A DNA stretch of 64,000 bases. It comes from a virus. The notes beneath the pieces were generated by a model. It was not told the origin of the DNA, did no database searches, and saw nothing but the letters and a program-made list of their open reading frames with translations. The stretch is from IMG/VR virus record IMGVR_UViG_3300048854_000126, positions 32,001-96,000 of that record. One strand, given 5' to 3'. Shown one piece after another: positions 16,346-34,209 of this stretch. Both the position numbers and the translations under genes were made by a program. Position 1 is the first letter of the stretch. Each line of letters begins with the position of its first letter.

Positions 16346-16379
16346 ATCCACCCGACCGCCGATGCGCGGTCGGGAGAAT
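16346..16379 (+). promoter_or_regulatory. ATCC-N24(hairpin)-GAGAAT element, putative promoter
   Basis: Stem CCCGACCGC/GCGGTCGGG in exact 24-nt spacer; one of 7 copies. Confidence 0.6.
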
Positions 16380-16420
16380 GACTCAATCGGTTGCACGACA
16401 ACCATCATCGCGAGCACATC

Positions 16421-16831
16421 ATGCCGACACCAAATTTTGAATTGCTTAAAGACGCCTACGCGATCATCGACGGCATCCCGGACGAGAACGTCAACCTTAA
16501 TAGCTGGCGCAGAACCGATCGCGGTGCCACATGCGGGACGATTGCCTGCGCCGCCGGTTGGCTCTCGCTGCACCCGCAGTTCAAGGCGCTCGGCCTGAGA
16601 TACGACAAGGGTGGGGAAAACATCGTTTTGGACCAAAGTGTTCACTCCGGCTGGGACGCACTCGCACAAGTGTTTTCGCTAACAAATAGCGATGCGCAAC
16701 ACCTCTTCAAAGGTGCTTACCTTGAACCTGTCCACACACATCGTGAGATATTCCTCGAGCGCGTGCGGACCTTTCTGTCCGATCATGGTCAGTTGAAAGA
16801 GCAACTCGCCGAGGTGCAGCATGCGTCCTAA
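16421..16831 (+). CDS. Hypothetical protein with CGTIACAAGW motif (paralog 1)
   Basis: Clear similarity to next ORF. Confidence 0.75.
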   Translation: MPTPNFELLKDAYAIIDGIPDENVNLNSWRRTDRGATCGTIACAAGWLSLHPQFKALGLRYDKGGENIVLDQSVHSGWDALAQVFSLTNSDAQHLFKGAYLEPVHTHREIFLERVRTFLSDHGQLKEQLAEVQHAS

Positions 16832-17267
16832 TTTCGAGCGTCTGCGCGACGCGTTCGCCATCATCGACGGGATTCCGAAGAAGGCATTCGATCTCGATAT
16901 GTGGGTGTCACAACGCGGCAAAAACAAATCGTGCGGCACGATTGCATGTGCTGCGGGTTGGCTCGCAATGCACCCAAAGATGAATGGATTCGGGCTGACG
17001 AACAGCATGGGTGGCGCACCAGAATTCAAGGGATTAACCAGCTTCGCCGCACTGCGAGAGTTTTTCCACCTCAATTACCGTGAGGGTGATTTGTTCGAGG
17101 CGGCCGGGTCCGGCTATGCGGACAACGAGCTCCCGAAACACGTCCGTGTTGCGCTGTCTGACAAACAGTTGTGGAAGCGCCGCGTGCTACGTTTGTTCCA
17201 GGCATACAACGAGCCGTTCGACCCAAAGGTTGGCGAGGGCCTGCTGCTGGACGTCAGGGGCGCCTGA
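16821..17267 (+). CDS. Hypothetical protein with CGTIACAAGW motif (paralog 2)
   Basis: PNFE.L.DA.AIIDGIP and CGTIACAAGWL shared with previous ORF. Confidence 0.75.
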   Translation: MRPNFERLRDAFAIIDGIPKKAFDLDMWVSQRGKNKSCGTIACAAGWLAMHPKMNGFGLTNSMGGAPEFKGLTSFAALREFFHLNYREGDLFEAAGSGYADNELPKHVRVALSDKQLWKRRVLRLFQAYNEPFDPKVGEGLLLDVRGA

Positions 17268-17268
17268 T

Positions 17269-17730
17269 ATGACAGCGCTCCACATTCCCCACCTTGGCGC
17301 CGCGCTGACTCTTGCGGAGGATTGGACGTTCCGGCTGTTCGAAGAGCACCGGAATTCCCCGCTGATCGAGGCGGTCGGCATTACGCACGCATACCGGCTG
17401 CTGCCGGACTTCTGGAGCGGGCCGAGCGCCACGCGTCAAGAGGCAATAGCAAAGTCAAAGTGGCGCCTGGCTGATGGCTCGATACCGACATTTGCTGATC
17501 GGTATCTGAGCGGCGACCTTCAGCATCCTTTGACGCTGCCCGCCGGCGCGCTCCTCACAATCGATCGCATCTTCATTCGCAAGGGCGCCGCCCACTTCGA
17601 TAGCGTGACGTTCTGGCTGAAAGCGAAGCAGGTGCCCATCACGATCAACGGCCGGCTGGTGAAGAAGAGCGCGCGCTTCTGGGCGAAGCTGGATGACGTG
17701 AACACGATCCAGTTCGTGGAGGGCGAATGA
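17269..17730 (+). CDS. Hypothetical protein
   Basis: ATG after upstream stop; coupled to next ORF. Confidence 0.65.
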   Translation: MTALHIPHLGAALTLAEDWTFRLFEEHRNSPLIEAVGITHAYRLLPDFWSGPSATRQEAIAKSKWRLADGSIPTFADRYLSGDLQHPLTLPAGALLTIDRIFIRKGAAHFDSVTFWLKAKQVPITINGRLVKKSARFWAKLDDVNTIQFVEGE

Positions 17731-17954
17731 ACACCAAGCCCACAATAGGGCAGCGCGTCTGCCTGAACAACACAGGATACGACCGCTTGTGGCTACGCTC
17801 TAGGGAAGCCATCAAGCAATCACAAAACATGAGGATCACGGACGTCGAGAACATCAACGCCGGAACGGGTTCCGAGCCGATCTGGATGATCGAGGTCGAT
17901 CAGCCGCTGATCGACTTCTTCCTGCTCGATTCCTCAATGGTCGATCCGATTTAG
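17727..17954 (+). CDS. Hypothetical protein
   Basis: GGAGGG RBS, ATGA overlap. Confidence 0.6.
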   Translation: MNTKPTIGQRVCLNNTGYDRLWLRSREAIKQSQNMRITDVENINAGTGSEPIWMIEVDQPLIDFFLLDSSMVDPI

Positions 17955-18445
17955 CGCAGTTTGTCGAGCACGTCACCCGCTTCACACGCGGCCTCGTCCA
18001 CGTCAACGGTGAAGCGCGTGATCTCGTCGACGGGCCACTTCATATCGCTGATGGGTTTTGGTTTGTCTTCGACAACGGGTCTTGTTGTGCGCCCTTGATA
18101 GTTCAGGATCTGATCGCCGTTTGTGTCAGTAGAGGGGTGAGCGTGGATCAGGGCGTTTCGCTGCTCGACGAGAGCCGTGAAGGACGCGTGGACCGCAGTC
18201 AGTTCGTCTTTCGAGACAAATTGGAAACTCGTCTGCTGGTCGTTAATAACGCTCTCCAGACGCTCGGCAACTTTGCCCGACGTGATCGGCTTGCCCCGCG
18301 AATAGGTCGATACAAAACCGGGCTGCAGGTAGTCGATGATGTAGATGATGGTCCACTCGTAATAGGCGAATAGATAGATAGCTGTCCCGAGACGGGCTGT
18401 GTAGCCCGGATCGAAGGGCACGCGGAGTTGTAGGTCTTGTGCCAT
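17951..18445 (-). CDS. Moron with HEPN-like RxxxxH motif
   Basis: Opposite strand to neighbours, lower GC, RNALIH, GAGG RBS. Confidence 0.55.
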   Translation of the reverse strand: MAQDLQLRVPFDPGYTARLGTAIYLFAYYEWTIIYIIDYLQPGFVSTYSRGKPITSGKVAERLESVINDQQTSFQFVSKDELTAVHASFTALVEQRNALIHAHPSTDTNGDQILNYQGRTTRPVVEDKPKPISDMKWPVDEITRFTVDVDEAACEAGDVLDKLR

Positions 18446-18578
18446 GTGGCACCTCATTGCAGTTAAAGAGCGGCAATCCTAGCTGGTTGCTTCGCGAGAC
18501 ACAAACAACAGTATGTAAACCCGGTCCATGTTGCGGTGACTATAATTAGTAACAGATTAGTAATCATTCGAGGGAAGC

Positions 18579-19154
18579 ATGACCATTATCAGCGGCGTGG
18601 ACATAGAGACGACCGGGCTCGACCAGACGGCAGGGCATCGCATCATCGAAGTCGGTGCGCTCCTGTTCGAGCTCGAGTCCGCAAAGTTCCTGGGCAAATA
18701 CGTCCAGCGCATCAATCCCCAGCGTCCGATCGACCCGGCGGCGCAAGCGGTGCACGGGATCACGTTCGACATGCTCGCGCACGAGCCGACGTGGGAACAG
18801 GTCGCGCCGAACGTTCACCGTGTGCTGACCGCTGCCCGGTTCATGGCGGGGCACAACGTGCGCGGCTTCGACTGGCCATTCCTCGCGGGCGAGTTCCAGC
18901 GCATTGGTATGTCGGTGCCGGAGATCGAGCTCATCGACACGATGGAGGAGGGCCGCTGGGCCACGCCGCTGGGCAAGCTGCCCAATCTTGGCGAGTTGTG
19001 TTTTGCGTGCGGAATCGACTACGACCCATCCAAAGCGCACGGCGCCGAATACGACATTGACGTGAACATGAAAGCCTACTTCGCTGCCCGCGCGCAAGGG
19101 TTCTTCGGACCCGCGATCGTGCAGCCTGTTCCCCTCATTCTGGAGGCAGCATGA
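18579..19154 (+). CDS. DEDDh 3'-5' exonuclease (DnaQ/epsilon-like)
   Basis: DIETTG, HN..FD, AHGAEYD. Confidence 0.9.
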   Translation: MTIISGVDIETTGLDQTAGHRIIEVGALLFELESAKFLGKYVQRINPQRPIDPAAQAVHGITFDMLAHEPTWEQVAPNVHRVLTAARFMAGHNVRGFDWPFLAGEFQRIGMSVPEIELIDTMEEGRWATPLGKLPNLGELCFACGIDYDPSKAHGAEYDIDVNMKAYFAARAQGFFGPAIVQPVPLILEAA

Positions 19155-19522
19155 GCGACTTCAACTTCGATCTGGAATTCGCGCGCTCCGGCGCACCTGA
19201 TGCCTGCCGACCGTGGCCGCACAGCGGTAAGGAGTTCATCGCGTTCTTCGCGGTGCTGCCCGAGGACGCGGGCGACGACGGCCAACGCGTGTGGTGGCTC
19301 AACCCGCCCGACTGCGTTCAGGAGGTCATGTCTGACTACGGGACGATTGGCGTTGTGTCTGATGAGCTTTTTCGCGTCTCCGAGTGCATTGAGCTCCAGA
19401 CCGCCGGGCTCTACCGCGCAAAGCTCGCCTTCTTCACCGAGTGCAGCACCGATTACGAAAGCGGCCACGAAGAGTGCGATTACGGCTTCTCCATCATCAC
19501 CACTGAAAAGGTGCCGACATGA
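19151..19522 (+). CDS. Acidic hypothetical protein
   Basis: GGAGG RBS, ATGA overlap. Confidence 0.65.
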   Translation: MSDFNFDLEFARSGAPDACRPWPHSGKEFIAFFAVLPEDAGDDGQRVWWLNPPDCVQEVMSDYGTIGVVSDELFRVSECIELQTAGLYRAKLAFFTECSTDYESGHEECDYGFSIITTEKVPT

Positions 19523-19923
19523 GCGCGATCAAGGTGGACCACCCGGCGTTCGATCGAACGATAGACATTCTCGTGCCGGGCAAACACATCGTTTGCTTCA
19601 AAGTGCCGAAGGTAGTCCCTACCGACGCCGCGAAAGCGTTCGTCGAAGCCTATTCCGCGCTTGTCGACAAGTTCGCAGCGGACCTCGCAGCAATTCCCGG
19701 CGCGTCAGCCGCGCGGGAGTTTGGCGGGCATGTTACTCGGCCAAGCAAGACGTGGCTCTATGCGAAGCCGGCTGCGGAGCAATTCAACGATGACGAAATC
19801 GCTGAGATGAAGGCAGCAACGCTCGCGGCTTTCCCTGATGGTCGGATTGCCGGCGAATGGCACAACCAATCGAGCGGGTGGCCGGGCTACTCGATTCAAA
19901 TCGCTCACGGAGATACGGCATGA
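19519..19923 (+). CDS. Hypothetical protein
   Basis: Coupled ORF. Confidence 0.6.
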   Translation: MSAIKVDHPAFDRTIDILVPGKHIVCFKVPKVVPTDAAKAFVEAYSALVDKFAADLAAIPGASAAREFGGHVTRPSKTWLYAKPAAEQFNDDEIAEMKAATLAAFPDGRIAGEWHNQSSGWPGYSIQIAHGDTA

Positions 19924-20531
19924 AGCGCCACGAAATCAAGCAACTCCTACTCGACCTGAACCCGCAGACAGTCGCCGAGCATTCGTGCTTCGACCACCAC
20001 GTTGTCGGCATGGACTACTTGTGCCTGCACCGCTCGGACAAGCTCACGGTCAAGCTGTATTTCATCGACCCGAAGCACATCAACGCGCCCGCTGGCGACG
20101 ATCTCGTCATCCCGCATACGCACCGCTATGCATTCGAGAGCACGGTCCTCGCTGGCAAGCTCGGGCACATGCAGTTCGAAGAGTGCGGCGCGACTGACCA
20201 CAACGCCGAAGAGGTCGAGCGCTTCACCTATGTGCCGGAGGCGAAGACGCGCATTGGCGGGCTGCAGGCGCACATTCGTTTGATCCAGTCGGTCGATCAC
20301 CGTAGCCACCTCAACCCGTCCTACTGGTGCGACACAAAGACGATCCACACCCTGGCCGTGCCGCGCGAGCAAGTGCTGCTTGGACTCGTGCAGTTCGCCG
20401 ATACCGTGCCGACGTCCCATGTTTATCTTGAGAAGGGCGGGGAGATGCGTTTTACCGAGCCCCGAACCATGAAGCCAATCGACGCATGGAACATGCGCAA
20501 CAAGGCGCTCGAAATGATGGAGCAAGGATGA
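19920..20531 (+). CDS. Cupin-like (HxH) protein
   Basis: PHTHRYAFESTVLAG and IHTL pattern typical of cupin metal sites. Confidence 0.5.
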   Translation: MKRHEIKQLLLDLNPQTVAEHSCFDHHVVGMDYLCLHRSDKLTVKLYFIDPKHINAPAGDDLVIPHTHRYAFESTVLAGKLGHMQFEECGATDHNAEEVERFTYVPEAKTRIGGLQAHIRLIQSVDHRSHLNPSYWCDTKTIHTLAVPREQVLLGLVQFADTVPTSHVYLEKGGEMRFTEPRTMKPIDAWNMRNKALEMMEQG

Positions 20532-21007
20532 GCAAAGCAAAAGTGAAGGTGATCGTGGAGGGTAAGGCGGGGTCGGGCGCACACAGCGTCGCGCGCCTCA
20601 TTGCAAATGCTTTGATCGCTCAAAACGCCGAAGTCCAGGTCAATGAGGATGAGGCCGATCTGTTCTCGAAGGCGCCGATCCGGACGATGGAAGGGCTTAC
20701 GGTTGACCTGAAGCACAAGCAACTGCCGCGTGTGAAATCCGACTTGCTGAAGGTCAAGTTATCTCAGGAGGAATGGACTGCGGTGCAGATCATCCGTGGT
20801 CGCCGGATGACGGGCCTCGTCGATCACAAGACTCAGGACGGGCTCTATTACTTCTGGTGCTGGGGCAGTCAACCCACGGGTGCCGACCGCGTGACGGGCA
20901 AGACGCCGCTCGAGGCTGCTGAAGCGCACATGAAGGTCTACGAGCGGTGGGAAGGTGGCACACAGCAAATGTCGATCACCCCAATACGAAAAGCGAGGGC
21001 AGCATGA
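20528..21007 (+). CDS. Hypothetical protein
   Basis: Coupled ORF. Confidence 0.6.
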   Translation: MSKAKVKVIVEGKAGSGAHSVARLIANALIAQNAEVQVNEDEADLFSKAPIRTMEGLTVDLKHKQLPRVKSDLLKVKLSQEEWTAVQIIRGRRMTGLVDHKTQDGLYYFWCWGSQPTGADRVTGKTPLEAAEAHMKVYERWEGGTQQMSITPIRKARAA

Positions 21008-21177
21008 CTCAGGACGAAATCGTTGTAACGATGCTTCACGGTGTAATCGCCCAGATGGAACCCGAACAGCAAAAGCAGATCCGTGACTACGCCGCCGAGC
21101 TGCGCGCGAAGGTTGCCGACAATCCGACCCTGGCAGTCGCCATCGGTCTGGTCTGCGCAGAGATAGCTGCGCAATAG
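21004..21177 (+). CDS. Small hypothetical protein
   Basis: GAGGG RBS, ATGA overlap. Confidence 0.55.
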   Translation: MTQDEIVVTMLHGVIAQMEPEQQKQIRDYAAELRAKVADNPTLAVAIGLVCAEIAAQ

Positions 21178-21185
21178 GAGGACCG

Positions 21186-21392
21186 ATGCGCCGTTACTTC
21201 CTCTGTTACACCTACTGGCGTGCGGACGGGCAGAGCACGCAGGGCGTCGCCTGCACCGAGATCGAGCGGGAGAAGCCGATTTACGGCTTCGAGGACGTCC
21301 GGGAGATCATCGCGCTGCTCAAAGAGCGCGGGAACTTCGAAAACGTGGTGGTCCACAGCTGGCAGCTTTTCGAGGGTCAGCCATGCTCGTGA
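21186..21392 (+). CDS. Small hypothetical protein
   Basis: AGGAGG RBS. Confidence 0.6.
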   Translation: MRRYFLCYTYWRADGQSTQGVACTEIEREKPIYGFEDVREIIALLKERGNFENVVVHSWQLFEGQPCS

Positions 21393-22096
21393 CCGTGATC
21401 GCTGACGCATCGTATGACCACGGCACGCGCGCCGGCGGGTTCGGTTACTGGGCAGTGTCACAACGCAAGCGCCAGAGCGGTGGTGGCCCGTTTAAATCGC
21501 TCTCGCGCAACAACAACGTCGCCGAGATGATGGCGCTGATGAACGGCGTGCACATGGCGTTCGTTCACGGTGTCGCTTTCCCGGGCGACGCAATCCTCGC
21601 GCAAACCGACTGCACCGCGGCGATCCTGGCATTCGAGGGTAAGCGTGTCCTGATGAACGACGAGAAAATTCTGGTCGAAGGGCTGCAAACGCTTTTAAAG
21701 CTTAAGGGCGCGACGATCCGGTTCAAGCACGTCAAGGGCCATACGAACGGGGCCGAGCCCCGCCTATGGGTCAATAACGCGTGTGATGCGGTCGCAAAAC
21801 GGGGAATGCACGCCGCGCGGGACCGGGCGCGCACTGAGCGCATGCCTTTGCTTAGTGAGGTGCCAACGCCGCCGAAGCCAGTCAAGTCGCCCGAGCAGCG
21901 CGCCGAAAAGCGTGCGCAGAAGCAGGTGATCCGCAAGCAGGATCAACAAAACCGGCGCACTTTCGCCTTCAATCAAAAGGAGTGGGAATCGTATGTCCTG
22001 GACCCCGAGCTTTCATCAATTCCGCCTTGGGCGGAACAAGAGCTACCTGAACAGCGTGTGGCTGGGAACGATCTGGTCGGCGCTCACGCTGCCTGA
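21383..22096 (+). CDS. RNase H-like nuclease
   Basis: IADAS, NNVAEMMA, QTDC, HVKGH, NNACD motifs. Confidence 0.8.
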   Translation: MLVTVIADASYDHGTRAGGFGYWAVSQRKRQSGGGPFKSLSRNNNVAEMMALMNGVHMAFVHGVAFPGDAILAQTDCTAAILAFEGKRVLMNDEKILVEGLQTLLKLKGATIRFKHVKGHTNGAEPRLWVNNACDAVAKRGMHAARDRARTERMPLLSEVPTPPKPVKSPEQRAEKRAQKQVIRKQDQQNRRTFAFNQKEWESYVLDPELSSIPPWAEQELPEQRVAGNDLVGAHAA

Positions 22097-22262
22097 GATC
22101 CTGCTGTTCAGCTTCATCGTGCCCAGTTGCTACCGCCCGCGCACGGCCCTCGTGCGTGTGTGGGCAACGCTCGTGCTCGTCGTGAAGTTGCCCGTCTTCG
22201 GGTTGCTCGGTGGTGTGAAGAGCGAGGACGTGTCGGTCGACGAAATGATGTCGCAGACTGGT

Positions 22263-22595
22263 CTAGGTCGGGCTGCGGAAGGAGGGACGTGCGAGTAAAG
22301 ACTTCGAGGCAATGATGGAGCTTGCCTCCATCTCAGGCCTTTCCCCATCAATCCTTCTATTGGCGTCAAGCAATCGGTCAATCGTGCGGCGAGCCTGCTT
22401 AAGTGCTTGCTCGATCACTCGCTCCGCGGTTGCGCAGTCGACAGATCTCAAGGCATCGGGCGGGATCGGTGTCTGTCTGTTTTGCCCTTTTATACCGATC
22501 GTCAATCGCATGACCATCGGGGGTTCACCGTCCGTATCTGCGACATCGACGTTAATATCGAATGCTCGATAAGTCTCACTATGCGTTTGCGCCAT
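22263..22595 (-). CDS. Hypothetical moron protein
   Basis: Reverse-strand ATG ORF in lower-GC island. Confidence 0.45.
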   Translation of the reverse strand: MAQTHSETYRAFDINVDVADTDGEPPMVMRLTIGIKGQNRQTPIPPDALRSVDCATAERVIEQALKQARRTIDRLLDANRRIDGERPEMEASSIIASKSLLARPSFRSPT

Positions 22596-22681
22596 CGATG
22601 TCGTCTCGGTTATTGCAATAATCCTACCATGGCGCAGCGCGTAAATGTGTTGTAAACGCAGACATTAGGGTTCCTCTTAGT

Positions 22682-22891
22682 TTAATGACTATCGCACCAT
22701 TTCTCGGCCCAAAAGCGCGCGAATCCGAGAGCAAGCGCTTCTGTATCAAAAGAACGAAGGTAGCCCGACTTGGTTCCGCTCGCTTCCAGGCCAACAGATG
22801 CGGGCCGCGAGATTGTCGCTTGTCCTAAAAAGCCACCGGCAGTTTGGGATACGCAGCACTCGACGTTGAACGAGTCGTATTTAAAATGCAT
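22682..22891 (-). CDS. Small hypothetical moron protein
   Basis: Strong AGGAGG RBS on minus strand. Confidence 0.6.
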   Translation of the reverse strand: MHFKYDSFNVECCVSQTAGGFLGQATISRPASVGLEASGTKSGYLRSFDTEALALGFARFWAEKWCDSH

Positions 22892-23100
22892 GAATCCTCC
22901 TATTTAAGGAAATTTCAGTATGCGCCTATTAAATTGCGGCGGCAGAGCCTTTGAGAGAATCGCGTCAAGGCGTTCGAATCTTGAGGGGTTCATCGCTGTT
23001 AGTCGCGAGACGCATGTCATCCACGGTGCGGAAATCGTTGAACAGGCAAATGAGACAGGAGTGGCATTAACATTCGCCACCAGACTCTAAAGGCTGTGAC

Positions 23101-23286
23101 ATGAACAAGGCTTACGCGTCGGTGGTAGTTCTCGTCTGGTTCGGAGCATCCGCCGTTATCTACGATTTTTTGGATGGGGCCGGCGACTACGATGTCGTGA
23201 TGTCGCTCCTATTAGGAGCGGGGGCGACTTGGCTTCCCATCACTGTCTATGAAATTTGCTCCAACCGGGACGGTCCTGGTAAATGA
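23101..23286 (+). CDS. Small two-helix membrane protein
   Basis: Two hydrophobic segments. Confidence 0.45.
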   Translation: MNKAYASVVVLVWFGASAVIYDFLDGAGDYDVVMSLLLGAGATWLPITVYEICSNRDGPGK

Positions 23287-23347
23287 CAACCGGGAAGATC
23301 CCGGACACTGCGGGAAGTTTGCCGCGCCTCGAAAAAAGGAGTTGAAC

Positions 23348-23821: not shown

Positions 23822-24051
23822 TGAAGAAGTTCCTGCTATTTGTTGGTATGGACGTCACCGCGTTAGGCGGGTGGCACGACCTGTCGGACTCGTTCGATCA
23901 GTGTGATGATGCGGTCCGGCGGGGCGTAATGCTTTGCGATGGCACGAACCACAGCGACGATCCGCTATCTGACTTCTTCCACGTCTATGACTGGTGGCAT
24001 GTTGTCGACGTAAGCAGAGGGGAAATTGTCAAACAGGGCAGTGCCAACTGA
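23821..24051 (+). CDS. Small hypothetical protein
   Basis: TGATG coupling; GGWHD ... WWHVVD pattern. Confidence 0.6.
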   Translation: MKKFLLFVGMDVTALGGWHDLSDSFDQCDDAVRRGVMLCDGTNHSDDPLSDFFHVYDWWHVVDVSRGEIVKQGSAN

Positions 24052-24068
24052 TGACCTAATGCGACGAA

Positions 24069-25953: not shown

Positions 25954-26232
25954 AGGCGGGCAGGGCGGGCTTCGGCCCGCTTTGTTGCCCACGGTGCAAC
26001 GCCGTGGCAGGTATCAGCGTGCCACCCCTCCCGTATTACCCCTTCCCATAACGTCAATCGTCTATCTACGAGTAGGCCCGGGTGCGGCAGTTCGGTAAAA
26101 AGTTGCACCGTTCGCGCAACTTCTTGCAGAAACCCAGAGGGCCAGGGTTCGGCGTGCCTATACTGGAATAGTAAGCAATGACTAATCATTGCCTCGCTTT
26201 CATAGCGACAATTTAGTCACCGAAACGACCCA

Positions 26233-26889
26233 ATGAGCACCGCAATGATCGTCCGAACGCTTACCTGTGCCGAACACAAAGACTATGGATTCATGGGCTG
26301 GCGCCCGAACTGGATTCCGCACTTCGACCCTTCATCCGGGCTGGGTGTCGCGCATGACGTCCTTGAACACGCACGCCGTGATCCGGGAACGATCGAGTCC
26401 GAATTCCAAGCGTTCGGCGCGATCGTCTGGTTGCGCGGCGAGAGCGGCTGGTTCTACGAGCACCGCCCGCACGCGTCCGATATCGCCTGGCAGATGGCGA
26501 GCGACTTCATGCAGCAAGCCGAGTATCTCGACGGCGAAGGTCGAAAGCTGCATCGCGCGCCGAAGACCCGGCCGCTTGCCTACGACGGTGCGGAAGACAT
26601 GGTGCAGCGCTGCGTCACGAAAGGCTTGGCGTTGATCCGCTCCGAGCATGAGGACGGCTACCTGCATGGGCTGATCGACCGCGAGTCGGCAGTGAGTTAC
26701 ATGCGCATGGGTTATCGCGCCGCCGAGCGCCGGCTTGGCGACAGTTGCGGGGCGGCCAGTCTGTTCGACCGCATCTCGGAGGGCGCTGATCGCCACCTGA
26801 AGAACGCGGAGCCCGGCATGGAGCTCACGTTGCGCGTCGATACGCGTGCCTTCCGGGTGCAGATGGACGTCGATTACCCGAACGACTAA
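26233..26889 (+). CDS. Hypothetical protein
   Basis: ATG ORF after TATACT promoter-like site; HDVLEH motif. Confidence 0.7.
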   Translation: MSTAMIVRTLTCAEHKDYGFMGWRPNWIPHFDPSSGLGVAHDVLEHARRDPGTIESEFQAFGAIVWLRGESGWFYEHRPHASDIAWQMASDFMQQAEYLDGEGRKLHRAPKTRPLAYDGAEDMVQRCVTKGLALIRSEHEDGYLHGLIDRESAVSYMRMGYRAAERRLGDSCGAASLFDRISEGADRHLKNAEPGMELTLRVDTRAFRVQMDVDYPND

Positions 26890-26922
26890 TCCGACCGGGC
26901 GCCATGCGCCCGTTTCGAGAAT
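26889..26922 (+). promoter_or_regulatory. ATCC-N24(hairpin)-GAGAAT element
   Basis: Stem CGGGCGC/GCGCCCG; ACATCG downstream. Confidence 0.6.
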
Positions 26923-26952
26923 AACCACATCGCAATCATCACGGGACCAACC

Positions 26953-27573
26953 ATGTCCAACCTGAATTATCAGCAGCGCGCTGAAGAAATCGCCGCGCTC
27001 ATGAAGGGTCGCATTGAGCATCAATCCCCCGAATCTCCGCAGCCCAATCGCCTCCGCTTGCTTCTGCCCGAGACGGGTGTGCCCAATGCCAAGTTGTCGC
27101 TCGCATTCTCGCCTTACAACGCGAAGGGCCGCTTGGTCGTGACCTGCCTGTTTCCGAACTGCCCGGACTATGGGCCTGTGAACGCCAACACATTTGTGAG
27201 TGCACGTGACCTCGAGGCGGTCAACTACACCTCCTCGATCTCGATGGCCGAAAGCAAGTCGGCTGAACAAATGGTCCGCGACATCGAGCGCCGCTTGCTG
27301 CGTGGTTACCTGCAAGCGCTTGCGGCCACGAACAAAGGCATCGCCGAACGCGTGAAGGAGATCCACAAGAAGTCGCAGCTCATTAAGCGGCTCGCCGACA
27401 TCGCCGGTCAGCACTTAACGGAAGAGCAAGTGAAGCGCGAGCGCATCCACGTTTATGACGGCTCGCGCTCGATGGACATCGATCTGTCCGGCGAAAAGGT
27501 CCGCGTCGAAATGCGCTGGATATCGCCTGAGTTGGCCGAGAAAGTGATCCTGCTTTTCAACGAGAACGCGTAA
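26953..27573 (+). CDS. Hypothetical protein
   Basis: ORF directly after promoter element. Confidence 0.7.
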   Translation: MSNLNYQQRAEEIAALMKGRIEHQSPESPQPNRLRLLLPETGVPNAKLSLAFSPYNAKGRLVVTCLFPNCPDYGPVNANTFVSARDLEAVNYTSSISMAESKSAEQMVRDIERRLLRGYLQALAATNKGIAERVKEIHKKSQLIKRLADIAGQHLTEEQVKRERIHVYDGSRSMDIDLSGEKVRVEMRWISPELAEKVILLFNENA

Positions 27574-27577
27574 TCGC

Positions 27578-27611
27578 ATCCGCATGAGCGCCTACGGGCG
27601 CTCGGGAAAAT
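27578..27611 (+). promoter_or_regulatory. ATCC-N24(hairpin)-GAAAAT element
   Basis: Stem GAGCGCC/GGCGCTC; ACATCGA downstream. Confidence 0.6.
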
Positions 27612-27644
27612 CAATACATCGACAACAAACGCGAGAGCGAAACG

Positions 27645-28190
27645 ATGAACACCGTGCCTACCCTGCAAAACGATGCGCCGTATGCCTACGCCTTTGCGCG
27701 CGCCGAGCATGACTTTGCCGAAATCAAGATCGCGCTGCGCCGCATTGTGACGGGCTCCTTCAGCTATCTGTTTTCGTCGGAGCTGGTGATGCGCTGCTAT
27801 GTGAGCCGCGAGTTCGACACGCCTTATGGCGTGAAATTGGTGCTCGACGGCGGTCATCAGATGGAGATGGCCGAGCTCACCGCCGCAATGAAGGTGATGA
27901 CGTCGATCGCCAAGAAGCTCAAGAAGATGGAGGACGAGCTCGGTTACACGAACGACCGTGATCTGCCTGAGTTCGCGCGCCGCGTGCTGGTCGCATCGGG
28001 CATCCGGACGGTGTTCTACGAGCGGAAGTTCAATCAGGGCGCCGTCGATCGCAACGGGCTGACACTCAAGGATGGGATTTTCGGGCTGCCGAGCGTCGAT
28101 CCGCGCGATGGGAAGGACTTCCTCTTTGCGATTCGCGGGCTCACCGACGACACCCTGGAGAAGCGGGGCATGAAGAAGGAGCCGGCATGA
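27645..28190 (+). CDS. Hypothetical protein
   Basis: ORF directly after promoter element. Confidence 0.7.
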   Translation: MNTVPTLQNDAPYAYAFARAEHDFAEIKIALRRIVTGSFSYLFSSELVMRCYVSREFDTPYGVKLVLDGGHQMEMAELTAAMKVMTSIAKKLKKMEDELGYTNDRDLPEFARRVLVASGIRTVFYERKFNQGAVDRNGLTLKDGIFGLPSVDPRDGKDFLFAIRGLTDDTLEKRGMKKEPA

Positions 28191-28627
28191 GCACGGCCGC
28201 ACAGCAGGTCCAGATGTTCTACGACGCGGTGAGCCGCGCGGGCGAAGTCAACGTGACCTTCCTCGATCTGGTGAAGGACGGGATGACACGCGAGGAGCTC
28301 GCCAAGAACATCGCGCGCCGACCGAGCCTCTGGCAGCGGTTCGAGCATTGGTTGCCGCTGCTGCCTAGCATCCCGCCGGCTATCCACGATCGCCCGCTCG
28401 CTGCGGAAGGGCTACTCAGCTACCGATGCAAGGGCCGCTACGGCTGGATCATGATCGGCGCAAAAGATCATGACGACGCCATGCGTGAAGCTCGCCGCAG
28501 TAGCAACGACGTCACGGAAGCGGCCCTCGAAATCTGGGACGGCGAGCGTTACGTCCCGGTAGCCCGTGCGAGCCGAGAACCATTCCCAGCGGTCCTCGAG
28601 CGTGCCATCGCATGCTCGGGAAAATGA
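28187..28627 (+). CDS. Hypothetical protein, possibly two fused small domains
   Basis: AAGGAG RBS, ATGA overlap. Confidence 0.65.
   Translation: MSTAAQQVQMFYDAVSRAGEVNVTFLDLVKDGMTREELAKNIARRPSLWQRFEHWLPLLPSIPPAIHDRPLAAEGLLSYRCKGRYGWIMIGAKDHDDAMREARRSSNDVTEAALEIWDGERYVPVARASREPFPAVLERAIACSGK
28592..28625 (+). promoter_or_regulatory. GTCC-N24(hairpin)-GAAAAT element
   Basis: Stem CGAGCGTGC/GCATGCTCG; ACATCGA downstream. Confidence 0.55.
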
Positions 28628-28659
28628 AGACATCGATAACGCACACAGGGAGTGCAGAC

Positions 28660-28980
28660 ATGGCAAAAGCTAAGACCCCGCTCTATCTCATCAACCTCGA
28701 AGGGGGCGGCGACACGGATATCACCGTGGTGAACAAGGATGTGTTCGATTGGATCGGGAGCGACTTTAGTTGCAACGCCGGGGAATACAGCCGGGACGAA
28801 ACCATTCCCGGCACCGACGTCGTGGTGAATGTGACCTGCGGCAGCTTCGACAACGATCGTGCGCTGGCCGCCTCCGCGCACTTCACCGAGCAGGGATTCA
28901 GCACGATCAAAGCGGCACTCGCCTACATCAAGGAACAACGTGGCGAGTTGGCTGACGAGTATCACGGCTGCATCTATTGA
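28660..28980 (+). CDS. Hypothetical protein
   Basis: GGGAG RBS. Confidence 0.7.
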   Translation: MAKAKTPLYLINLEGGGDTDITVVNKDVFDWIGSDFSCNAGEYSRDETIPGTDVVVNVTCGSFDNDRALAASAHFTEQGFSTIKAALAYIKEQRGELADEYHGCIY

Positions 28981-28989
28981 ACAGCACGC

Positions 28990-29023
28990 ATCCTCCCGAG
29001 CTCCACAGCGTGCTCGGGAGAAT
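28990..29023 (+). promoter_or_regulatory. ATCC-N24(hairpin)-GAGAAT element
   Basis: Stem TCCCGAGC/GCTCGGGA; ACATCGA downstream. Confidence 0.6.
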
Positions 29024-29066
29024 GAACACATCGAAACAAAGCGCATAAGCGCGAGAGAGAAGAGCG

Positions 29067-29399
29067 ATGGAATGGATCATTACGAAGGACTTGATCGCCG
29101 AGCCCGGTGAGAAGACGCGCGTTGGATACGGCGCGTTGATGAGCGCCACCGTGCTGATGCTTCCGCCCAAGGGTGCACCAGACCGCCGTGCTGCGAAAGA
29201 AGCGTATGTCGCCACGCTGCCGTATGAGTTCCGCCTGTATGACGACGATAACGTCCTCTACTACGAGGGCCGTTGCGGGGATATCACCAACGTGGGCGAG
29301 GAAGAGGCGTTCGCTCCGCAAGACTGGGCGATGAACGATGCCGGCTGCACCTCCACACAGTATCGCAAGGTCGGCGCGAGCAAATGGGAGGATCTGTAA
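29067..29399 (+). CDS. Hypothetical protein
   Basis: FRLYDDD..YYEG motif seen in small phage proteins. Confidence 0.7.
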   Translation: MEWIITKDLIAEPGEKTRVGYGALMSATVLMLPPKGAPDRRAAKEAYVATLPYEFRLYDDDNVLYYEGRCGDITNVGEEEAFAPQDWAMNDAGCTSTQYRKVGASKWEDL

Positions 29400-29740
29400 T
29401 GGCTATCAAGATCATCGAAGCCGTGCGCAACATGATCGTCGCCGCCCGCGCTCACGACGCGACGCTGAACGATCCGCTTGGTGACGGGTCGGGCTCCGAG
29501 TCGCAGGCGCCCGAAGGCTGCGACTACAACATCCTGCTCGGCGAGATCGAGAAGGTGGCGCTGGAACTTGCCGAGATGACTTTCGCCACGCCCGAGCAGT
29601 TGACCGCTGCACGCGCCGCGTATGCACTGCGCAGCGACGACAACCTGGAGATCGACGAAGAGGCGCTCGTCTCGGAAGGCGAGGGCGGCGTCTGGGTCCA
29701 AGCCTGGGTGTGGATGTCGGACGAGGAGATGCCGCAATGA
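29399..29740 (+). CDS. Acidic hypothetical protein
   Basis: TAATG coupling; GVWVQAWVW end. Confidence 0.7.
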   Translation: MAIKIIEAVRNMIVAARAHDATLNDPLGDGSGSESQAPEGCDYNILLGEIEKVALELAEMTFATPEQLTAARAAYALRSDDNLEIDEEALVSEGEGGVWVQAWVWMSDEEMPQ

Positions 29741-30039
29741 AGCCAGAAAAACGGGAAAAGATGACGACGGCGCTGCTTGCGAAGATCGACGCAGCAATGC
29801 TGACCGATGCTGATATGCGCCGCGAGGCGATCGTCGAGGGCCGGATTGGCTTGAAAGAAATGAGCGACGAGGAGTTCGAGGACTTCGCGCTCGATAGCTA
29901 CAACCTGGACGAGCAGAATAACTTCTGCGACCAGTGCGGCGCTGCCAGCGATGACGGGGAAGGCGAGAACGGGCTGTGCGGCAATTGTGCCGACAAGCTC
30001 TACAACGACGATGGCGAATTGATCGGAGAGAAGAAGTAA
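29737..30039 (+). CDS. Acidic protein with CxxC-CxxC zinc finger
   Basis: CDQC ... CGNC; GAGGAG RBS. Confidence 0.65.
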   Translation: MKPEKREKMTTALLAKIDAAMLTDADMRREAIVEGRIGLKEMSDEEFEDFALDSYNLDEQNNFCDQCGAASDDGEGENGLCGNCADKLYNDDGELIGEKK

Positions 30040-30401
30040 TGCACCTCACGAAAAAAGAACGCGCTCTGCAGAAGGTCCGCATGACACCGCTTCAGCGAAT
30101 CAGCATCAATCGCCCGCTTCGTCGGAGCGCATCCGTGCCGCGCAGCGACCTGTATCCGGAGATTGACCAGACCGCCAAGGGTGAACTGCACGGTAAATGC
30201 AACGTCACGGCATGCGCTGAGCGGGGCGAGGACGTCAAGTGGTGGAACCGCCCAATGCGGGCGCACTACTGCTCCTATTGCAAGCGCGAGATCAGCCGGT
30301 TCGATGACTACCTCGGCACAGACCAAGCGATCTTCGAAACGAGTCCGCGCGAGAAGCTGTCGGGCCACGAAATCACGTCGATCATCATTGACGAAGCGTA
30401 A
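30039..30401 (+). CDS. Hypothetical protein with Cys motifs
   Basis: CNVTAC ... YCSYC. Confidence 0.6.
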   Translation: MHLTKKERALQKVRMTPLQRISINRPLRRSASVPRSDLYPEIDQTAKGELHGKCNVTACAERGEDVKWWNRPMRAHYCSYCKREISRFDDYLGTDQAIFETSPREKLSGHEITSIIIDEA

Positions 30402-30454
30402 CTAACCGAGCGCGCATGAGGGCGCATCGATAACACATTCAATGAGGAGCACTG

Positions 30455-30676
30455 ATGGCTGGCTACGACTGCGTGGAGCGCGCGATTGCGCACGGGGATG
30501 ACCCGTCCAACAACGGGAATGGCTACGCACTGCGCGTCACGCTGAATAGCGGCGTTCAGTTCGAAGGTCCGGTTGGGGATCTGATCAGTGAGACGGAGAC
30601 GTTGAAGCTCCAGATCCTGTCGCTCGACATCTTCATCAACTGCGCCGAGGTGGCGGCCGCCGAGGTCGTCTGGTGA
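30455..30676 (+). CDS. Small hypothetical protein
   Basis: GAGGAG RBS. Confidence 0.65.
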   Translation: MAGYDCVERAIAHGDDPSNNGNGYALRVTLNSGVQFEGPVGDLISETETLKLQILSLDIFINCAEVAAAEVVW

Positions 30677-30963
30677 GTAAAAGTCCATTCGACGCGCAGC
30701 CGCCGCGTTATCTCGCCTACTGCCATGCGCAGGGCACGACGCCCGAAGCACAACGAATCGCCGACGCGAAGCGTTACGGCGGCTCTTGGAGCATGCCATA
30801 CGTCTATTGGGTGCGGCATGAGATGGCGGAGTGGTGCAAGTTGAACGGGCGTTTTCGCCTTGAGATGGATTGGAATGACCACACCGTGTTCAGCGAGTGG
30901 CTGTCCAAGAAGTATCCGCCGCCGGCGCGCGAGCGATACATCCGACATTGGGCCGCGCGCTGA
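30673..30963 (+). CDS. Hypothetical protein
   Basis: GTGA overlap. Confidence 0.6.
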   Translation: MSKSPFDAQPPRYLAYCHAQGTTPEAQRIADAKRYGGSWSMPYVYWVRHEMAEWCKLNGRFRLEMDWNDHTVFSEWLSKKYPPPARERYIRHWAAR

Positions 30964-31026
30964 CGGTGATGCCGCCGCATATTGCGACACCAACTTCGAG
31001 TCGATACCTCCTGCTAAGGGCCACCC

Positions 31027-31347
31027 ATGAAACTCATTCTCCGCAACGGATATCCGTTCCCGTTTCCAACGAACATCAGCGAGCGCGCAAGCGACGAAAT
31101 CGCTGACGCAGCGAATGGCGTTCACCTGGACATCGACGGCGTGACGCACTTCGAATGGGTGCATACCGTGACCATCGAATTCGAATCGCGTGAGGCATGC
31201 GAGCGCGCCATCGAGCTCACGGGCTGGAACTACTGGGATGAGGAGCGCATGGTGCTCGAAGCCATGACGTCAGCGGGAGACGGCTACGGCCACCCGGCGA
31301 TCGTCGTGCGCGACAAAGCGTATTGCGGATTCACGGTGCTGAGCTAA
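31027..31347 (+). CDS. Hypothetical protein
   Basis: AAGGG RBS. Confidence 0.65.
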   Translation: MKLILRNGYPFPFPTNISERASDEIADAANGVHLDIDGVTHFEWVHTVTIEFESREACERAIELTGWNYWDEERMVLEAMTSAGDGYGHPAIVVRDKAYCGFTVLS

Positions 31348-31349
31348 GC

Positions 31350-31383
31350 ATCCACGCGGGCGCCGAGCCTGCGTCGGGATACT
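31350..31383 (+). promoter_or_regulatory. ATCC-N24(hairpin)-GATACT element
   Basis: Stem ACGCGGGC/GCCTGCGT. Confidence 0.55.
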
Positions 31384-31412
31384 TAAATCTCTCCCACCGA
31401 ACGAGACATATC

Positions 31413-31712
31413 ATGCGCATCAAAGACGCCACGCCCGAACAAGCCGAAAACGCATTGCGGGCCTACTGCGAGAAGCTCGCGCCCGACGCCATCATTGATG
31501 ACGAGTTCGGGCGCCGTCTGGGTGATGCGGATCTGATCGCTTACCTGATCGAACAGGAAGTCGGACACTCCACGTGTCCGCTCCTTGCTGACCTCTACCC
31601 AAGCGGGCCGATCAGTCTCGAACAAGCCAAAGCAAATTGGGATGCGAAGTCGGATATCGAAAAGCGCATGGAGCAGGTCTCGTTCGTCGCGCCGCCACAC
31701 TGTTACTTCTGA
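31413..31712 (+). CDS. Hypothetical protein
   Basis: ORF after promoter element. Confidence 0.6.
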   Translation: MRIKDATPEQAENALRAYCEKLAPDAIIDDEFGRRLGDADLIAYLIEQEVGHSTCPLLADLYPSGPISLEQAKANWDAKSDIEKRMEQVSFVAPPHCYF

Positions 31713-31720
31713 ACCGGTCC

Positions 31721-31984
31721 TCACTTCCTCAGCCGCCCGATATCGCCCACGCGCTGCCTCTCCCGAATGAGGAGGTAGTGCATCTGTTCCAAGGCAGCGA
31801 GACGCCCAAGCTTCGCTTCGCCAAATGCCCGCCGTGCGACGTCGCAGAATTCATGGAGCACGTCCTGCGTGTGACGCATCCGATGGACCTCCAATAGCAA
31901 GCGTCTGACCATAGGGTCGCGGTTGGTTTTCCACAGATGCCGCATCTCACCAATGGTGACCGGATCGAAGTCGTCAATGTCCAT
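31721..31984 (-). CDS. Small protein behind a LexA box
   Basis: ATG ORF, SOS box 17-32 nt upstream. Confidence 0.6.
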   Translation of the reverse strand: MDIDDFDPVTIGEMRHLWKTNRDPMVRRLLLEVHRMRHTQDVLHEFCDVARRAFGEAKLGRLAALEQMHYLLIRERQRVGDIGRLRK

Positions 31985-32000
31985 GATCGGGTGCCTAATA

Positions 32001-32016
32001 CTGTATGGATGAACAG
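32001..32016. promoter_or_regulatory. LexA (SOS) box
   Basis: CTGT-ATGGATGA-ACAG with TA flanks, matching the beta/gammaproteobacterial consensus. Confidence 0.75.
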
Positions 32017-32493
32017 TATAAGCGTGCTTCCCGAGTCGGAAATAACCGCCGTTATTTCATGGTCGGAGCAGGGTAGGGCGAGCCCGAACATAAGCCATTG
32101 AATACAAACGTCTTTCGCCTGATTCGGTGTGACCGTCGGTTTCGGGCCAATTGCAGAGCCATTTCGTAACGTGGAACGAATGGTCTGTCGCGCTAAAAGC
32201 CCGTGCCAAGCCCGCCTCATTCTTCCCGGTAAGCGAATGAGCTAAACCTCAAACGGGCCCGATGCCGACCCGTTCAAGAGCCCGCAGACTGATAGCTAAT
32301 ACAGCCCCGTTCGCTCGATTCATTTTCCCGGTATGAGAAAGAGGACAAAGCGAACAGTTGGCAAGAACGCCGACACCGACAAAGCCGACCCAATCGCGGA
32401 CGAGAACACCGCCGACATAGAGAACGATCCACCATAGATAGATCATCCGGGTGTAGAGACTCGACACTCCACATACACAGCTATACGCATTGC

Positions 32494-33067
32494 TCCACGT
32501 ATAAGAACACCAATCCGCTCTATAAGGTCTCCGGGCTTTGGGTCCACGTATAAGAACTCCAGCGATTGGGGGCCGATCGTTGTCTTTCAATCGACGCTTG
32601 CCAGGATTTTCTTATACCTAGCGCGGGCCGGTGCCGAGGGCATGACCGTTGCTGAATGGAGGCAGCACCCCTCCAAGGCATGCCATGAAAGCAACAATAA
32701 CCTCCTTCTACTTTGCGGCAGTCCACGGCTTTACTGACCCGCATCCGTTCTTCGGCTTCGACCTCGAAGAACACGGGGCGGTCATTCGCTCGGACATCAT
32801 CTCTCTTCGCACAGCGCGCATTCTGGCGCAGGAGCTGGGCCGCGGAGCAGCGTTCGTCAAGATGCTCAAAGCCATTATGGAATGCCCGCCAAGTGATTAC
32901 GGGCTGTTGGTCGGCCAGGTGTTCGAAGATTGAGAGCGACAAAATCCAATCAGGTCCGTGGCTGAAATTCCGAGGACGCGCGGCCCGGTAGGAGCGCCTT
33001 GGCTCCCTATAAGGTTCGCCCGGCCCTATAAGGTTTGGCCCGTCTCCCTATAAGAATGCCCTATAAG
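32494..33067 (+). repeat. TATAAG-core repeats
   Basis: TCCACGTATAAGAAC at 32494 and 32543; CCCTATAAG at 33005, 33024, 33046, 33059. Confidence 0.75.
32685..32933 (+). CDS. Small hypothetical protein
   Basis: ATG ORF between repeat clusters. Confidence 0.5.
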   Translation: MKATITSFYFAAVHGFTDPHPFFGFDLEEHGAVIRSDIISLRTARILAQELGRGAAFVKMLKAIMECPPSDYGLLVGQVFED

Positions 33068-33132
33068 GTTCGGGGATCTCTGCATTAGAGATTTGGGCAG
33101 TAGAATGAATGCCCCTTTCCGAGGAGACCAAA

Positions 33133-33471
33133 ATGAAGAAGTGGCATGTGTATGAAACCAGCTATATCGACTGGGCGTGGAGCGCACTGCGATCGGTCGA
33201 TGAAACGCGGGCTGTTCTCGCGGACAACGTGAATGAAGAATGGAGCGATCTTAGCCAGCACCCGGTCGATGAATTCGATGCGGACTTTGGCGAGGCAAAG
33301 CGCCTCGCTTCTGAGGAAGGCTGGGAAGGGGACTATCGACAAGGCCCCGTCGTCTTTTGGCTGCCTGACCCGAACTACAACTCTTTCGTATATGGCTTCT
33401 TCTGGAAGCAGGACAATAATGGCACCTGCTACACCGTGTCGCCTCATCCGCTGCCTTGGTTGGAGGATTGA
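33133..33471 (+). CDS. Acidic hypothetical protein ending PLPWLED (paralog 1)
   Basis: GAGGAG RBS; similarity to next ORF. Confidence 0.75.
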   Translation: MKKWHVYETSYIDWAWSALRSVDETRAVLADNVNEEWSDLSQHPVDEFDADFGEAKRLASEEGWEGDYRQGPVVFWLPDPNYNSFVYGFFWKQDNNGTCYTVSPHPLPWLED

Positions 33472-33473
33472 TC

Positions 33474-33785
33474 ATGGATTGGATCATTTATCGAATTGAG
33501 CGCCCCGCAAACGAACTGAACTGGATGCGCACTTCCACCGAGATCGTCGAGCGCGCCGCTGCGGACGACGACACCATGGTCGCCGCCATTGTGGAAGCCG
33601 AACTCGATGCGGCTTTCGAGGCAGCGCGCCAAGCGGGCTGGGACGGCGAGATGGACGAGGAGCCGCATGCCTTCGTGCTGCCGGCGAAGGACGAGTTCCG
33701 GTTCGGGTTCGTCTGGACGTGCCCTGACCCGGACAAACCAGTCGTCATTGCATCGCCGTTGCCACTGCCTTGGCTTGAAGACTAA
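33474..33785 (+). CDS. Acidic hypothetical protein ending PLPWLED (paralog 2)
   Basis: GGAGG RBS; GW(E/D)G and SP.PLPWLED shared. Confidence 0.75.
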   Translation: MDWIIYRIERPANELNWMRTSTEIVERAAADDDTMVAAIVEAELDAAFEAARQAGWDGEMDEEPHAFVLPAKDEFRFGFVWTCPDPDKPVVIASPLPLPWLED

Positions 33786-34175
33786 AAAGAGATCGTCAGT
33801 GGGGCATCCAAGGCCCTGCTGGCGGTTGTGATATCTGTTTGGACGCGTAACAGCGTCCGCCCGGGTTTCTCATCCCGATCCCGGACATTAAGCTCACTTG
33901 CAAACGAGCTCCACACATGCCCGCTAGATCGGGTCATGAGCCGCTTGTCCCGTCGTTCATCTCACGGGCCACGGCGGTCCAGGCGAAAAAGAGCCGACAC
34001 GAATGCCGGCCGGGGAATCACCTGGCATCGGAATACCGGGCGACAAAAACAGCCACTTGGGCTACTCAGCATCTCCTGTGCCCGCTGATCATAAAAAAGG
34101 GCCGGCACGCTGGTGCCGGCCCGTCGAATCGCCTAGCACCCGGGGAAAGCGCTAGGCGAGTAACCACATGCATAC

Positions 34176-34209
34176 ATCCGAGCATCAGCCGTTCCCGAGT
34201 CTCGAAAAT
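34176..34209 (+). promoter_or_regulatory. ATCC-N24-GAAAAT element (weak hairpin)
   Basis: Same exact spacing as the other copies. Confidence 0.5.

Follow-up and report, generated by a model that had tools for sequence, protein, structure and literature searches.

We analyzed a 64,000-nucleotide (nt) stretch of viral DNA (here referred to as the window), which corresponds to bases 32001 to 96000 of IMG/VR record IMGVR_UViG_3300048854_000126, with a focus on a family of short repeated elements located in front of its small genes. The source record is a 105,119-bp virus genome with direct terminal repeats and a G+C content of 60%. Besides a siphovirus structural module, it contains modules for replication (DnaB, primase, ligase, CobT/CobS-like proteins, DnaE-type polymerase, and SSB) and nucleotide metabolism (RNR and ThyX). 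Terminases with ~60% identity to that of this phage occur in SSU5-like phage-plasmids, in Nickievirus phages of Pseudomonas, and in RHEph10-like phages of Rhizobium. DNA from window positions 26200 to 31800 was matched in five metagenome DNA runs, all from soil, and in no RNA run, and one homologue of one phage protein was named from Paraburkholderia. The phage is an SSU5-like siphovirus and probably a phage-plasmid of Burkholderiaceae.

The elements lie in an array of small plus-strand genes, most of which had no family match and none of which had an assigned function. The array genes were mostly present in one to three of the five genomes compared below, and the gene set differed between relatives. 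A previous sequence-only reading of the window had pointed out seven elements with 24 nt between (A/G)TCC and GANNNT, and all seven were confirmed to the base, as was the ACATCG located 4 nt downstream in four of them (the first copy has CAATCG instead). The copies and the features discussed with them are listed in Table 1.

TABLE 1 Element copies and associated features (window positions unless marked as genome positions; ORF, open reading frame; aa, amino acids)
Feature	Position	Strand	Sequence and hairpin	Surroundings
Copy 1	16346..16379	+	ATCC...GCC...TCGGGAGAAT; 9-bp stem, positions 6-14/21-29; -19.5 kcal/mol, z -4.2	CAATCG after 4 nt; 10 nt past stop of ORF 16033-16335; 41 nt before ATG 16421
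Copy 2	26889..26922	+	7-bp stem CGGGCGC/GCGCCCG; -16.1 kcal/mol, z -4.1	Overlaps stop codon of ORF 26233-26889; ACATCG 26927-26932; ATG 26953
Copy 3	27578..27611	+	Stem GAGCGCC/GGCGCTC; -16.3 kcal/mol, z -3.4	4 nt past stop of ORF 26953-27573; ACATCG 27616-27621; ATG 27645
Copy 4	28592..28625	+	GTCC start; 11-pair stem including two G-U pairs; -19.2 kcal/mol, z -5.7	Within last 36 nt of ORF 28187-28627; ACATCG 28630-28635; ATG 28660
Copy 5	28990..29023	+	Second box TCC; stem CCCGAGC/GCTCGGG; -17.5 kcal/mol, z -4.2	9 nt past stop of ORF 28660-28980; ACATCG 29028-29033; ATG 29067
Copy 6	31350..31383	+	GATACT box; CTC subtype with a stable hairpin; -17.7 kcal/mol, z -2.9	TCTCTCC, not ACATCG, downstream; 2 nt past stop of ORF 31027-31347; ATG 31413
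Copy 7	34176..34209	+	CTC subtype; boxes intact, no internal hairpin; -4.5 kcal/mol, z -0.86	GCTCACG downstream; gene-free stretch of ~380 nt; two separate hairpins 20-80 nt upstream; ATG 34240
Copy 8 (coding region)	genome 9560-9593		No hairpin	3' part of ORF 9186-9659, 66 nt before its stop and 75 nt before next gene; 22.4 kb before window start
Non-member	26131..26187	+	TATACT box, then palindromic site AATAGTAAGCAATGACTAAT	One of ~22 in genome
Gene downstream of copy 1	16421..16831	+		136 aa; phrog_889, function unknown
Run of small genes	26953..29399	+		206, 181, 146, 106, and 110 aa; four of five with their own element in front
Sigma-like gene	genome 24299-24955 (outside window)			218 aa; replication operon, between MoxR/CobS-like ATPase and DnaE polymerase genes

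Relatives of the source phage were collected by a motif scan of viral contigs and then by a search with the sigma-like protein of the phage (Table 1). The contig scan, performed with TCGGGARAATNNNNACATCG, returned 19 loci, 17 of which were chance matches. The resulting family set consists of five genomes, i.e., the source phage (G000) and four relatives (G001, G002, G003, and G004) that are complete or near-complete soil phage genomes of the ~105-kb class. G002 comprises two joined genomes, one half being ~98% identical to G001 and the other (G002a) ~80 to 84% identical to G001. The remaining genome pairs shared 74 to 77% nucleotide identity across roughly 60 to 70% of their length.

A position matrix detected 45 distinct copies of the element in the five genomes. 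Every copy was on the gene strand, the opposite strand gave none, and the maxima of shuffled sequences lay near the threshold. The copies share the consensus (c)GC-(A/G)TCC-N8-(G/T)CC(A/G)-N8-TCGGGA(R)A(A/C)T, and not a single insertion or deletion was found in the 45 copies. Five positions (C3, C14, C15, A30, and T34) were invariant, C4 and A32 were each conserved in 44 copies, T2 was conserved in 43, and G27 was conserved in 34. Upstream of the TCGGGA block are two K-CC-D boxes (positions 2 to 5 and 13 to 16) separated by one helical turn; position 13 was G or T only, and positions 5 and 16 were never C. In the window, the refined pattern TCC-N9-CC-N9-Y-N3-GANAMT had seven matches (0.14 expected), all on the plus strand, and a genome-wide count (105 kb) of the strict pattern gave seven matches on the plus strand and one on the minus strand. 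The looser pattern of the sequence-only reading was not enriched when taken alone (12 matches versus 14.4 expected), the family being far more specific than that pattern. The same reading held that structure rather than sequence was conserved; the stems do vary, but the conserved CC at positions 14 and 15 and TCGGGA at positions 25 to 30 had been overlooked. We conclude that the cassette family is real, conserved, and clade-specific.

The copies fell into three subtypes on the basis of the downstream sequence, namely, N4-(A)CATCG (n = 20), N4-(T/G)CTC(A/T)C (n = 13), and others (n = 12). Most of the 45 were intergenic, and a few overlapped the 3' end of the upstream ORF. In copies with a hairpin, the distance from the end of the element to the next start codon was 29 to 45 nt. 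The element and its leader formed a portable block that was found before unrelated genes. The leader of copy 4, from the -10-like sequence to the ATG, was identical at 39 of 50 positions to that of a relative's cassette located in front of an unrelated gene, with flanks that did not align.

The spacer hairpin was a conditional feature of the family. Hairpins were called significant at p ≤ 0.02 against shuffles that preserved the conserved boxes, a criterion by which ~1 copy was expected by chance. Significant hairpins were found in 18 of the 45 copies, including 16 of the 20 ATCG-type copies, 1 of the 13 CTC-type copies, and 1 of the 12 others. In the window, the hairpin that had been noted in six of the seven copies was borne out (-16.1 to -19.5 kcal/mol; z, -2.9 to -5.7), copy 7 being the one without. 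We counted 19 distinct stem sequences, with a helix axis (i+j) ranging from 30 to 36 and loops of 3 to 6 nt, and stems differed at orthologous positions. In the G004 copy at 8306, TCGGG was replaced by TCCCG, and the 5' arm was matched as CGGGG. The fold of the plus (sense) strand was the more stable one in 13 of the 18 hairpin copies. The hairpin was also related to the distance from the preceding gene, since 15 of the 18 hairpin copies lay within 27 nt of an upstream stop codon, versus 8 of the 27 copies without a hairpin. Among the CTC-type copies, copy 6 alone lies right next to a co-directional gene, and it carries a stem (Table 1). At least six CTC-type copies lie in longer gaps with a separate hairpin upstream, and several hairpin-less copies in longer gaps, copy 7 among them, have a separate strong hairpin 40 to 80 nt upstream. 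Thus, the family has a fixed geometry, regular strand and position preferences, and conservation across the five genomes, with a hairpin that is present conditionally.

These data bear on the proposal of the sequence-only reading that the hairpin or cruciform is what makes the promoter, i.e., that an extruded stem-loop is recognized as it is by the N4 virion RNA polymerase or at Frpo-type promoters. In N4 and Frpo promoters, the hairpin is obligatory and its position is fixed. The elements resemble them in having a GC hairpin just upstream of the presumed start, and the stable stems of the six window copies, together with stem sequences that vary in a compensatory manner between orthologues (G004, 8306), would suit such a mechanism. 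However, the boxes and spacing were retained without a significant hairpin in 27 of the 45 copies, including the copy kept in all five genomes (copy 8). The drifting axis and the range of loop sizes are unlike a fixed recognition hairpin, and hairpin presence tracks the distance to the upstream stop. Furthermore, no giant virion RNA polymerase is evident in the genome, its largest ORFs being the tail fiber (1,714 aa), the tape measure (1,505 aa), and the DNA polymerase (1,114 aa). A search with PF00940 (T7-like RNA polymerase) gave no match, and the control was equally silent. With a hairpin that is optional and mobile and no candidate virion polymerase in evidence, N4 and Frpo promoters are not a suitable model for the elements, and we regard a hairpin-dependent promoter as very unlikely. 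The other role that had been suggested for the stems, an action on the upstream transcript, appears the better supported of the two.

Copy 8, which lies in a coding region (Table 1), provides a view of selection on the element itself. It was conserved in all five genomes, and the protein segment encoded there, a linker, shows poor conservation. At the box positions, the codons TCC (Ser), CCA (Pro), and AAT (Asn) were kept in all five genomes and GAT (Asp) was kept in four. In these genomes, TCC accounts for 15% of Ser codons, CCA for 6.7% of Pro codons, AAT for 17.6% of Asn codons, and GAT for 25.5% of Asp codons. The retention of such rare codons at the box positions indicates selection on the boxes at the nucleotide level. 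This copy is probably an internal promoter for an operon that includes the ligase gene.

We also considered an intercistronic element that acts in RNA without any initiation, in which a 3'-protecting hairpin would be followed by an A-rich cleavage site (GAGAAU...ACAUCG) in a polycistronic transcript. The co-occurrence of the hairpin and the ACATCG box (16 of 20), the G-U pairs and greater stability of the sense-strand fold, and the location of copies directly after stop codons are all in line with this possibility. It fits poorly with the combination of rigid box spacing (45 copies) and a drifting stem register, a pattern typical of protein-DNA contacts, and with the lack of a hairpin in over half of the copies. 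Moreover, cleavage at copy 8 would ruin the mRNA of the ORF that contains it. Rfam covariance models run over positions 15500 to 35500 matched none of the elements and returned a single unrelated weak match (Ysr49; E, 0.19). We consider the RNA-only element unlikely. The sub-threshold Ysr49 match (24208 to 24376) overlaps a bidirectional terminator-like hairpin at 24353 to 24370 (GGGCACC-TTCG-GGTGCCC, with T-runs on both sides).

The sequence-only reading had placed the elements in a promoter class that departs from the sigma-70 -35/-10 geometry and likely needs an extra factor. Indirect evidence points the same way, i.e., the fixed spacing in 45 copies, the gene strand, the 29 to 45 nt to the start codon in hairpin copies, the conserved A30, A32, and T34, and the coding-region copy kept by rare codons. 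TCGGGA(R)A(A/C)T can be read as an extended -10 sequence in which G27 is -14, A30 is -11, A32 is -9, and T34 is -7. No -35 hexamer was found in the elements, where positions 6 to 11 consist of variable stem sequence; thus, the host sigma-70 holoenzyme would probably not be enough by itself. Consensus sigma-70 promoters were fewer than expected in the 20 kb scanned (2 sites versus 6.8), and neither site was at an element. The motifs of extracytoplasmic function (ECF) sigma factors were likewise absent, with no AAC -35 box, no CGT -10 box, and 20 nt rather than ~16 to 17 bp between ATCC and TCGGGA. Sequence inspection also gave no match to the sigma-54, sigma-32, sigma-28, or RpoE/AlgU consensus, no R or L boxes of an integron attC site, and no consistent frame for a short ORF starting at the ATG in GAGAATG. 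Given that the spacing stays rigid while the stem register drifts, that the elements are co-oriented with genes and, in hairpin copies, lie at a constant short distance from the start codon, and that the coding-region copy is constrained, recognition by a protein on DNA at a promoter is indicated rather than an RNA structure.

From this we infer that the elements are phage-specific promoters with an optional read-through hairpin, i.e., composite regulatory cassettes, a reading to which we assign a probability of roughly 0.6 on the sequence evidence. The obligatory part would be a DNA-level promoter with rigid geometry, made up of the two K-CC-D boxes and the 10-bp extended -10-like block, and transcription is predicted to start ~7 nt downstream of the block, at the second A of ACATCG. 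One candidate for the phage factor involved is the sigma-like protein that the phage itself encodes; another would be an activator that recognizes the pair of KCC boxes. The facultative part would be a GC-rich stem-loop that is built from the variable spacer and the conserved TCGGG and that forms only in read-through RNA. Where a cassette abuts a co-directional gene, the tight space would have compressed this stem-loop into the promoter spacer. There, it may attenuate, terminate, or 3'-protect the upstream transcript, which would make each small gene its own transcription unit, a role established for stem-loop cassettes of T4-type phages.

Several observations weigh against this reading. In the -10 register given above, position 29 (-12) is G rather than T, and CG rather than TG occupies -15/-14. 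An ECF-like register, with ATCC as the -35 box, TCGGGA as the -10 box, and a start near the conserved A36, fits about equally well, which makes the start site uncertain by ~5 nt. The association between the hairpin and proximity to the upstream gene is confounded by subfamily and shared ancestry. Internal G-T pairs outnumbered A-C pairs in the stems (5 versus 2), a difference that leans toward an RNA-level structure of the sense strand and is not significant. No U-tract follows any stem (AGAAT, AAAAT, or AAACT is found there), and a terminator scan picked none of the elements; because they lack the U-tract, the hairpins are not canonical intrinsic terminators. Finally, the sigma-like gene is tied to the elements by co-occurrence alone.

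The candidate factor is a putative sigma protein with sigma-2 and sigma-4 domains and an acidic disordered linker of ~30 residues, and its gene was present in all five genomes. PF04542 matched it weakly (E, 2e-4 and 9e-3). TIGR02937 matched 12 of 13 homologues, the best with an E value of 2.3e-6 and all below the curated cut-off. A structure model of the protein (mean predicted local distance difference test score, 70.6) yielded an N-terminal domain that aligned with sigma domain 2 (Z, 8 to 9; root mean square deviation, ~2 Å over 67 to 74 residues) and a C-terminal domain that aligned with region 4 of sigma-H (Z, 5.8). The top 50 Foldseek hits were essentially all sigma chains (E, ~1e-2), and one source labels homologues as "sigma-24 family". 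The sigma-2/sigma-4 assignment thus draws on sub-threshold or middling matches that agree with one another, none of them at a curated threshold.

Distant homologues (28 to 32% identity) of the sigma-like protein were found on Cupriavidus and Methylobacterium plasmids of 106 to 118 kb. A homologue whose source name is Paraburkholderia sp. RCC_158 was found on a 109-kb contig. A scan of genome contigs gave no match to the protein, and none was found in named phages. The 106-kb plasmid of Cupriavidus metallidurans (NZ_CP090528) carries a 32%-identical homologue and a palindromic-operator family, with neither an element having these boxes nor any other repeated intergenic motif. The lack of the boxes on this plasmid is compatible with a sigma-promoter pairing. 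We tentatively suggest, as a possibility on the doubtful side, that the elements are the cognate promoters of the divergent sigma-2/sigma-4 factor of the phage or of a reader of K-CC-D. If so, the three-box layout (i.e., a pair of KCCD words at a distance of one helical turn, followed by TCGGGARAAT) would be unprecedented, and a new sigma or activator specificity would be tied to the genome-wide avoidance of a word in a phage-plasmid clade.

The avoidance concerns an operon next to the array. KCCD and its complement HGGM were not found at all in positions 36308 to 37440 (1,133 nt), versus a median of 68 per tile, and in essentially all 45 copies of the element the two upstream boxes match the K-CC-D word exactly. 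One factor that reads K-CC-D in the elements may possibly also lie behind the purged operon. The shared word might instead mark a binding or recombination site of a phage DNA-binding protein, such as a site of cassette exchange, unrelated to transcription and with a fortuitous likeness to a -10 sequence. The variable gene content of the array among relatives, the promoter-leader block shared before unrelated genes, and the 2.3-fold excess of homology ends near elements (47 versus 20 expected) could be taken in this sense. Such an enrichment is expected at any intergenic gap, however, and co-orientation with genes at 29 to 45 nt from the start codon (in hairpin copies) suits a promoter and not a recombination site. 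In addition, promoter function and recombination coexist in the promoter-early stem-loops (PeSLs) discussed below. A role confined to binding or recombination is most improbable.

A second family in the genome consists of a TATACT box beside the palindrome AATAGTAAG-CAA-TGACTAAT. The site at 26131, which had been listed as a variant of the elements, fell below the threshold in the matrix scans and belongs to this palindromic operator family (Table 1). Genome-wide, ~22 palindromic sites of the form AATAGTAAC-N3-GTGACTAT(A/T) were found, many of them joined to a TATACT or TATAAT box, and they precede replication, nucleotide-metabolism, and structural genes. Examples in the window lie at 2388, 7650, 11260, 14263, 15463, 26170, and 37136, with further sites at 43402, 45449, 50429, 53054, 54013, 57255, and 57844. 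No such site was found between 26183 and 37136, and the core of the element array is free of them. An analogous palindrome, TAGTCAGTCAGCGCTGACTGACTATA, was found in the Cupriavidus phage-plasmid.

Further observations concern the genes and gaps around the window copies. In the run of small genes, the last gene alone (110 aa) matched a family (phrog_12268, function unknown). The TGA stop of the 146-aa ORF at 28187 to 28627 is made up of the last base of copy 4 and the next two bases. Within this ORF, positions 28384 to 28557 had 71% DNA identity with a gene annotated as a "KH domain-containing protein" of Pseudomonas phage ZRG1, and the ORF matched nothing from Pfam or PHROGs. Upstream of copy 7, no convincing ORF was found at 33790 to 34170 (~380 nt). 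This stretch contains a strong terminator-like hairpin on the minus strand at 34099 to 34122 (GGGCCGGCAC...GTGCCGGCCC, followed by T6) and a second hairpin at 34123 to 34160, and it may give rise to a small antisense or noncoding transcript. The gene-poor region at 32520 to 33067 contains a cluster of CTATAAG (5 of the 10 matches in the window versus 1 expected) together with CGTATAAGAAC variants, which could be iterons or binding sites. In the relatives, CTATAAG occurs within or just upstream of CTC-type elements.

The elements offer several practical uses. They would mark boundaries of transcription units in an array of genes with unknown function, which may aid annotation, and they provide a 34-bp candidate target for an uncharacterized phage sigma-like protein. 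The natural variants with and without a hairpin separate promoter recognition from hairpin function, and the boxes may help to explain why the neighboring operon is free of KCCD.

The cassettes can be compared with further known systems. Phages encode divergent or ECF-like sigma factors, such as phiEco32 gp36, SPO1 gp28, and T4 gp55. As in promoters served by phage sigma factors, a putative sigma-2/sigma-4 protein here co-occurs with a phage-specific consensus that lacks the host -35 and -10 hexamers, whereas the usual motifs of ECF sigma promoters (AAC at -35 and CGT at -10) are absent. The middle promoters of T4 (MotA box at -30 plus a sigma-70 -10 sequence, with AsiA) share with the elements a -10-like hexamer and a phage-specific upstream box in place of a -35 sequence, a layout that implies redirection of the host polymerase by a phage factor. 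The elements differ from them in having two KCC boxes, near -39 and -28, and in that no MotA or AsiA homologue was found in a genome that has a sigma-like gene instead.

The closest known analogue appears to be the PeSLs of T4-type phages (RB49/phi1, T4/PST, and KVP40/nt-1), which include a Mot-box variant, PmSL (Arbiol et al. 2010, PMC2839356; Comeau et al. 2014, PMC4122927). PeSLs lie between ORFans in hyperplastic regions, and their promoter and terminator activities, as well as recombination between cassettes, have been demonstrated (PMC2839356, PMC4122927). Their stem-loop is mostly located between -35 and -10 (PMC2839356). The elements described here are likewise short repeated cassettes in a region of variable gene content, where they separate small genes without known function and have a stop-to-start layout. 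In both cases, a promoter (a putative one here) is fused with a stem-loop, mostly between the upstream box and the -10 sequence or over the latter; G-T pairs occur in the stems; and one cassette may stand before unrelated genes. Unlike PeSLs, the elements lack a sigma-70-like promoter with TTGACA and instead have a pair of KCC boxes together with TCGGGARAAT. Only ~40% of the copies carry the hairpin, and the stems are GC-rich without a T-rich tail. The carrier is an SSU5-like siphovirus with ~60% G+C. Experiments have established composite promoter/stem-loop cassettes in T4-type phages only, with host-type promoters. The elements suggest that the same design also exists in an unrelated, GC-rich clade of SSU5-like phage-plasmids, with a consensus that resembles no described sigma specificity.

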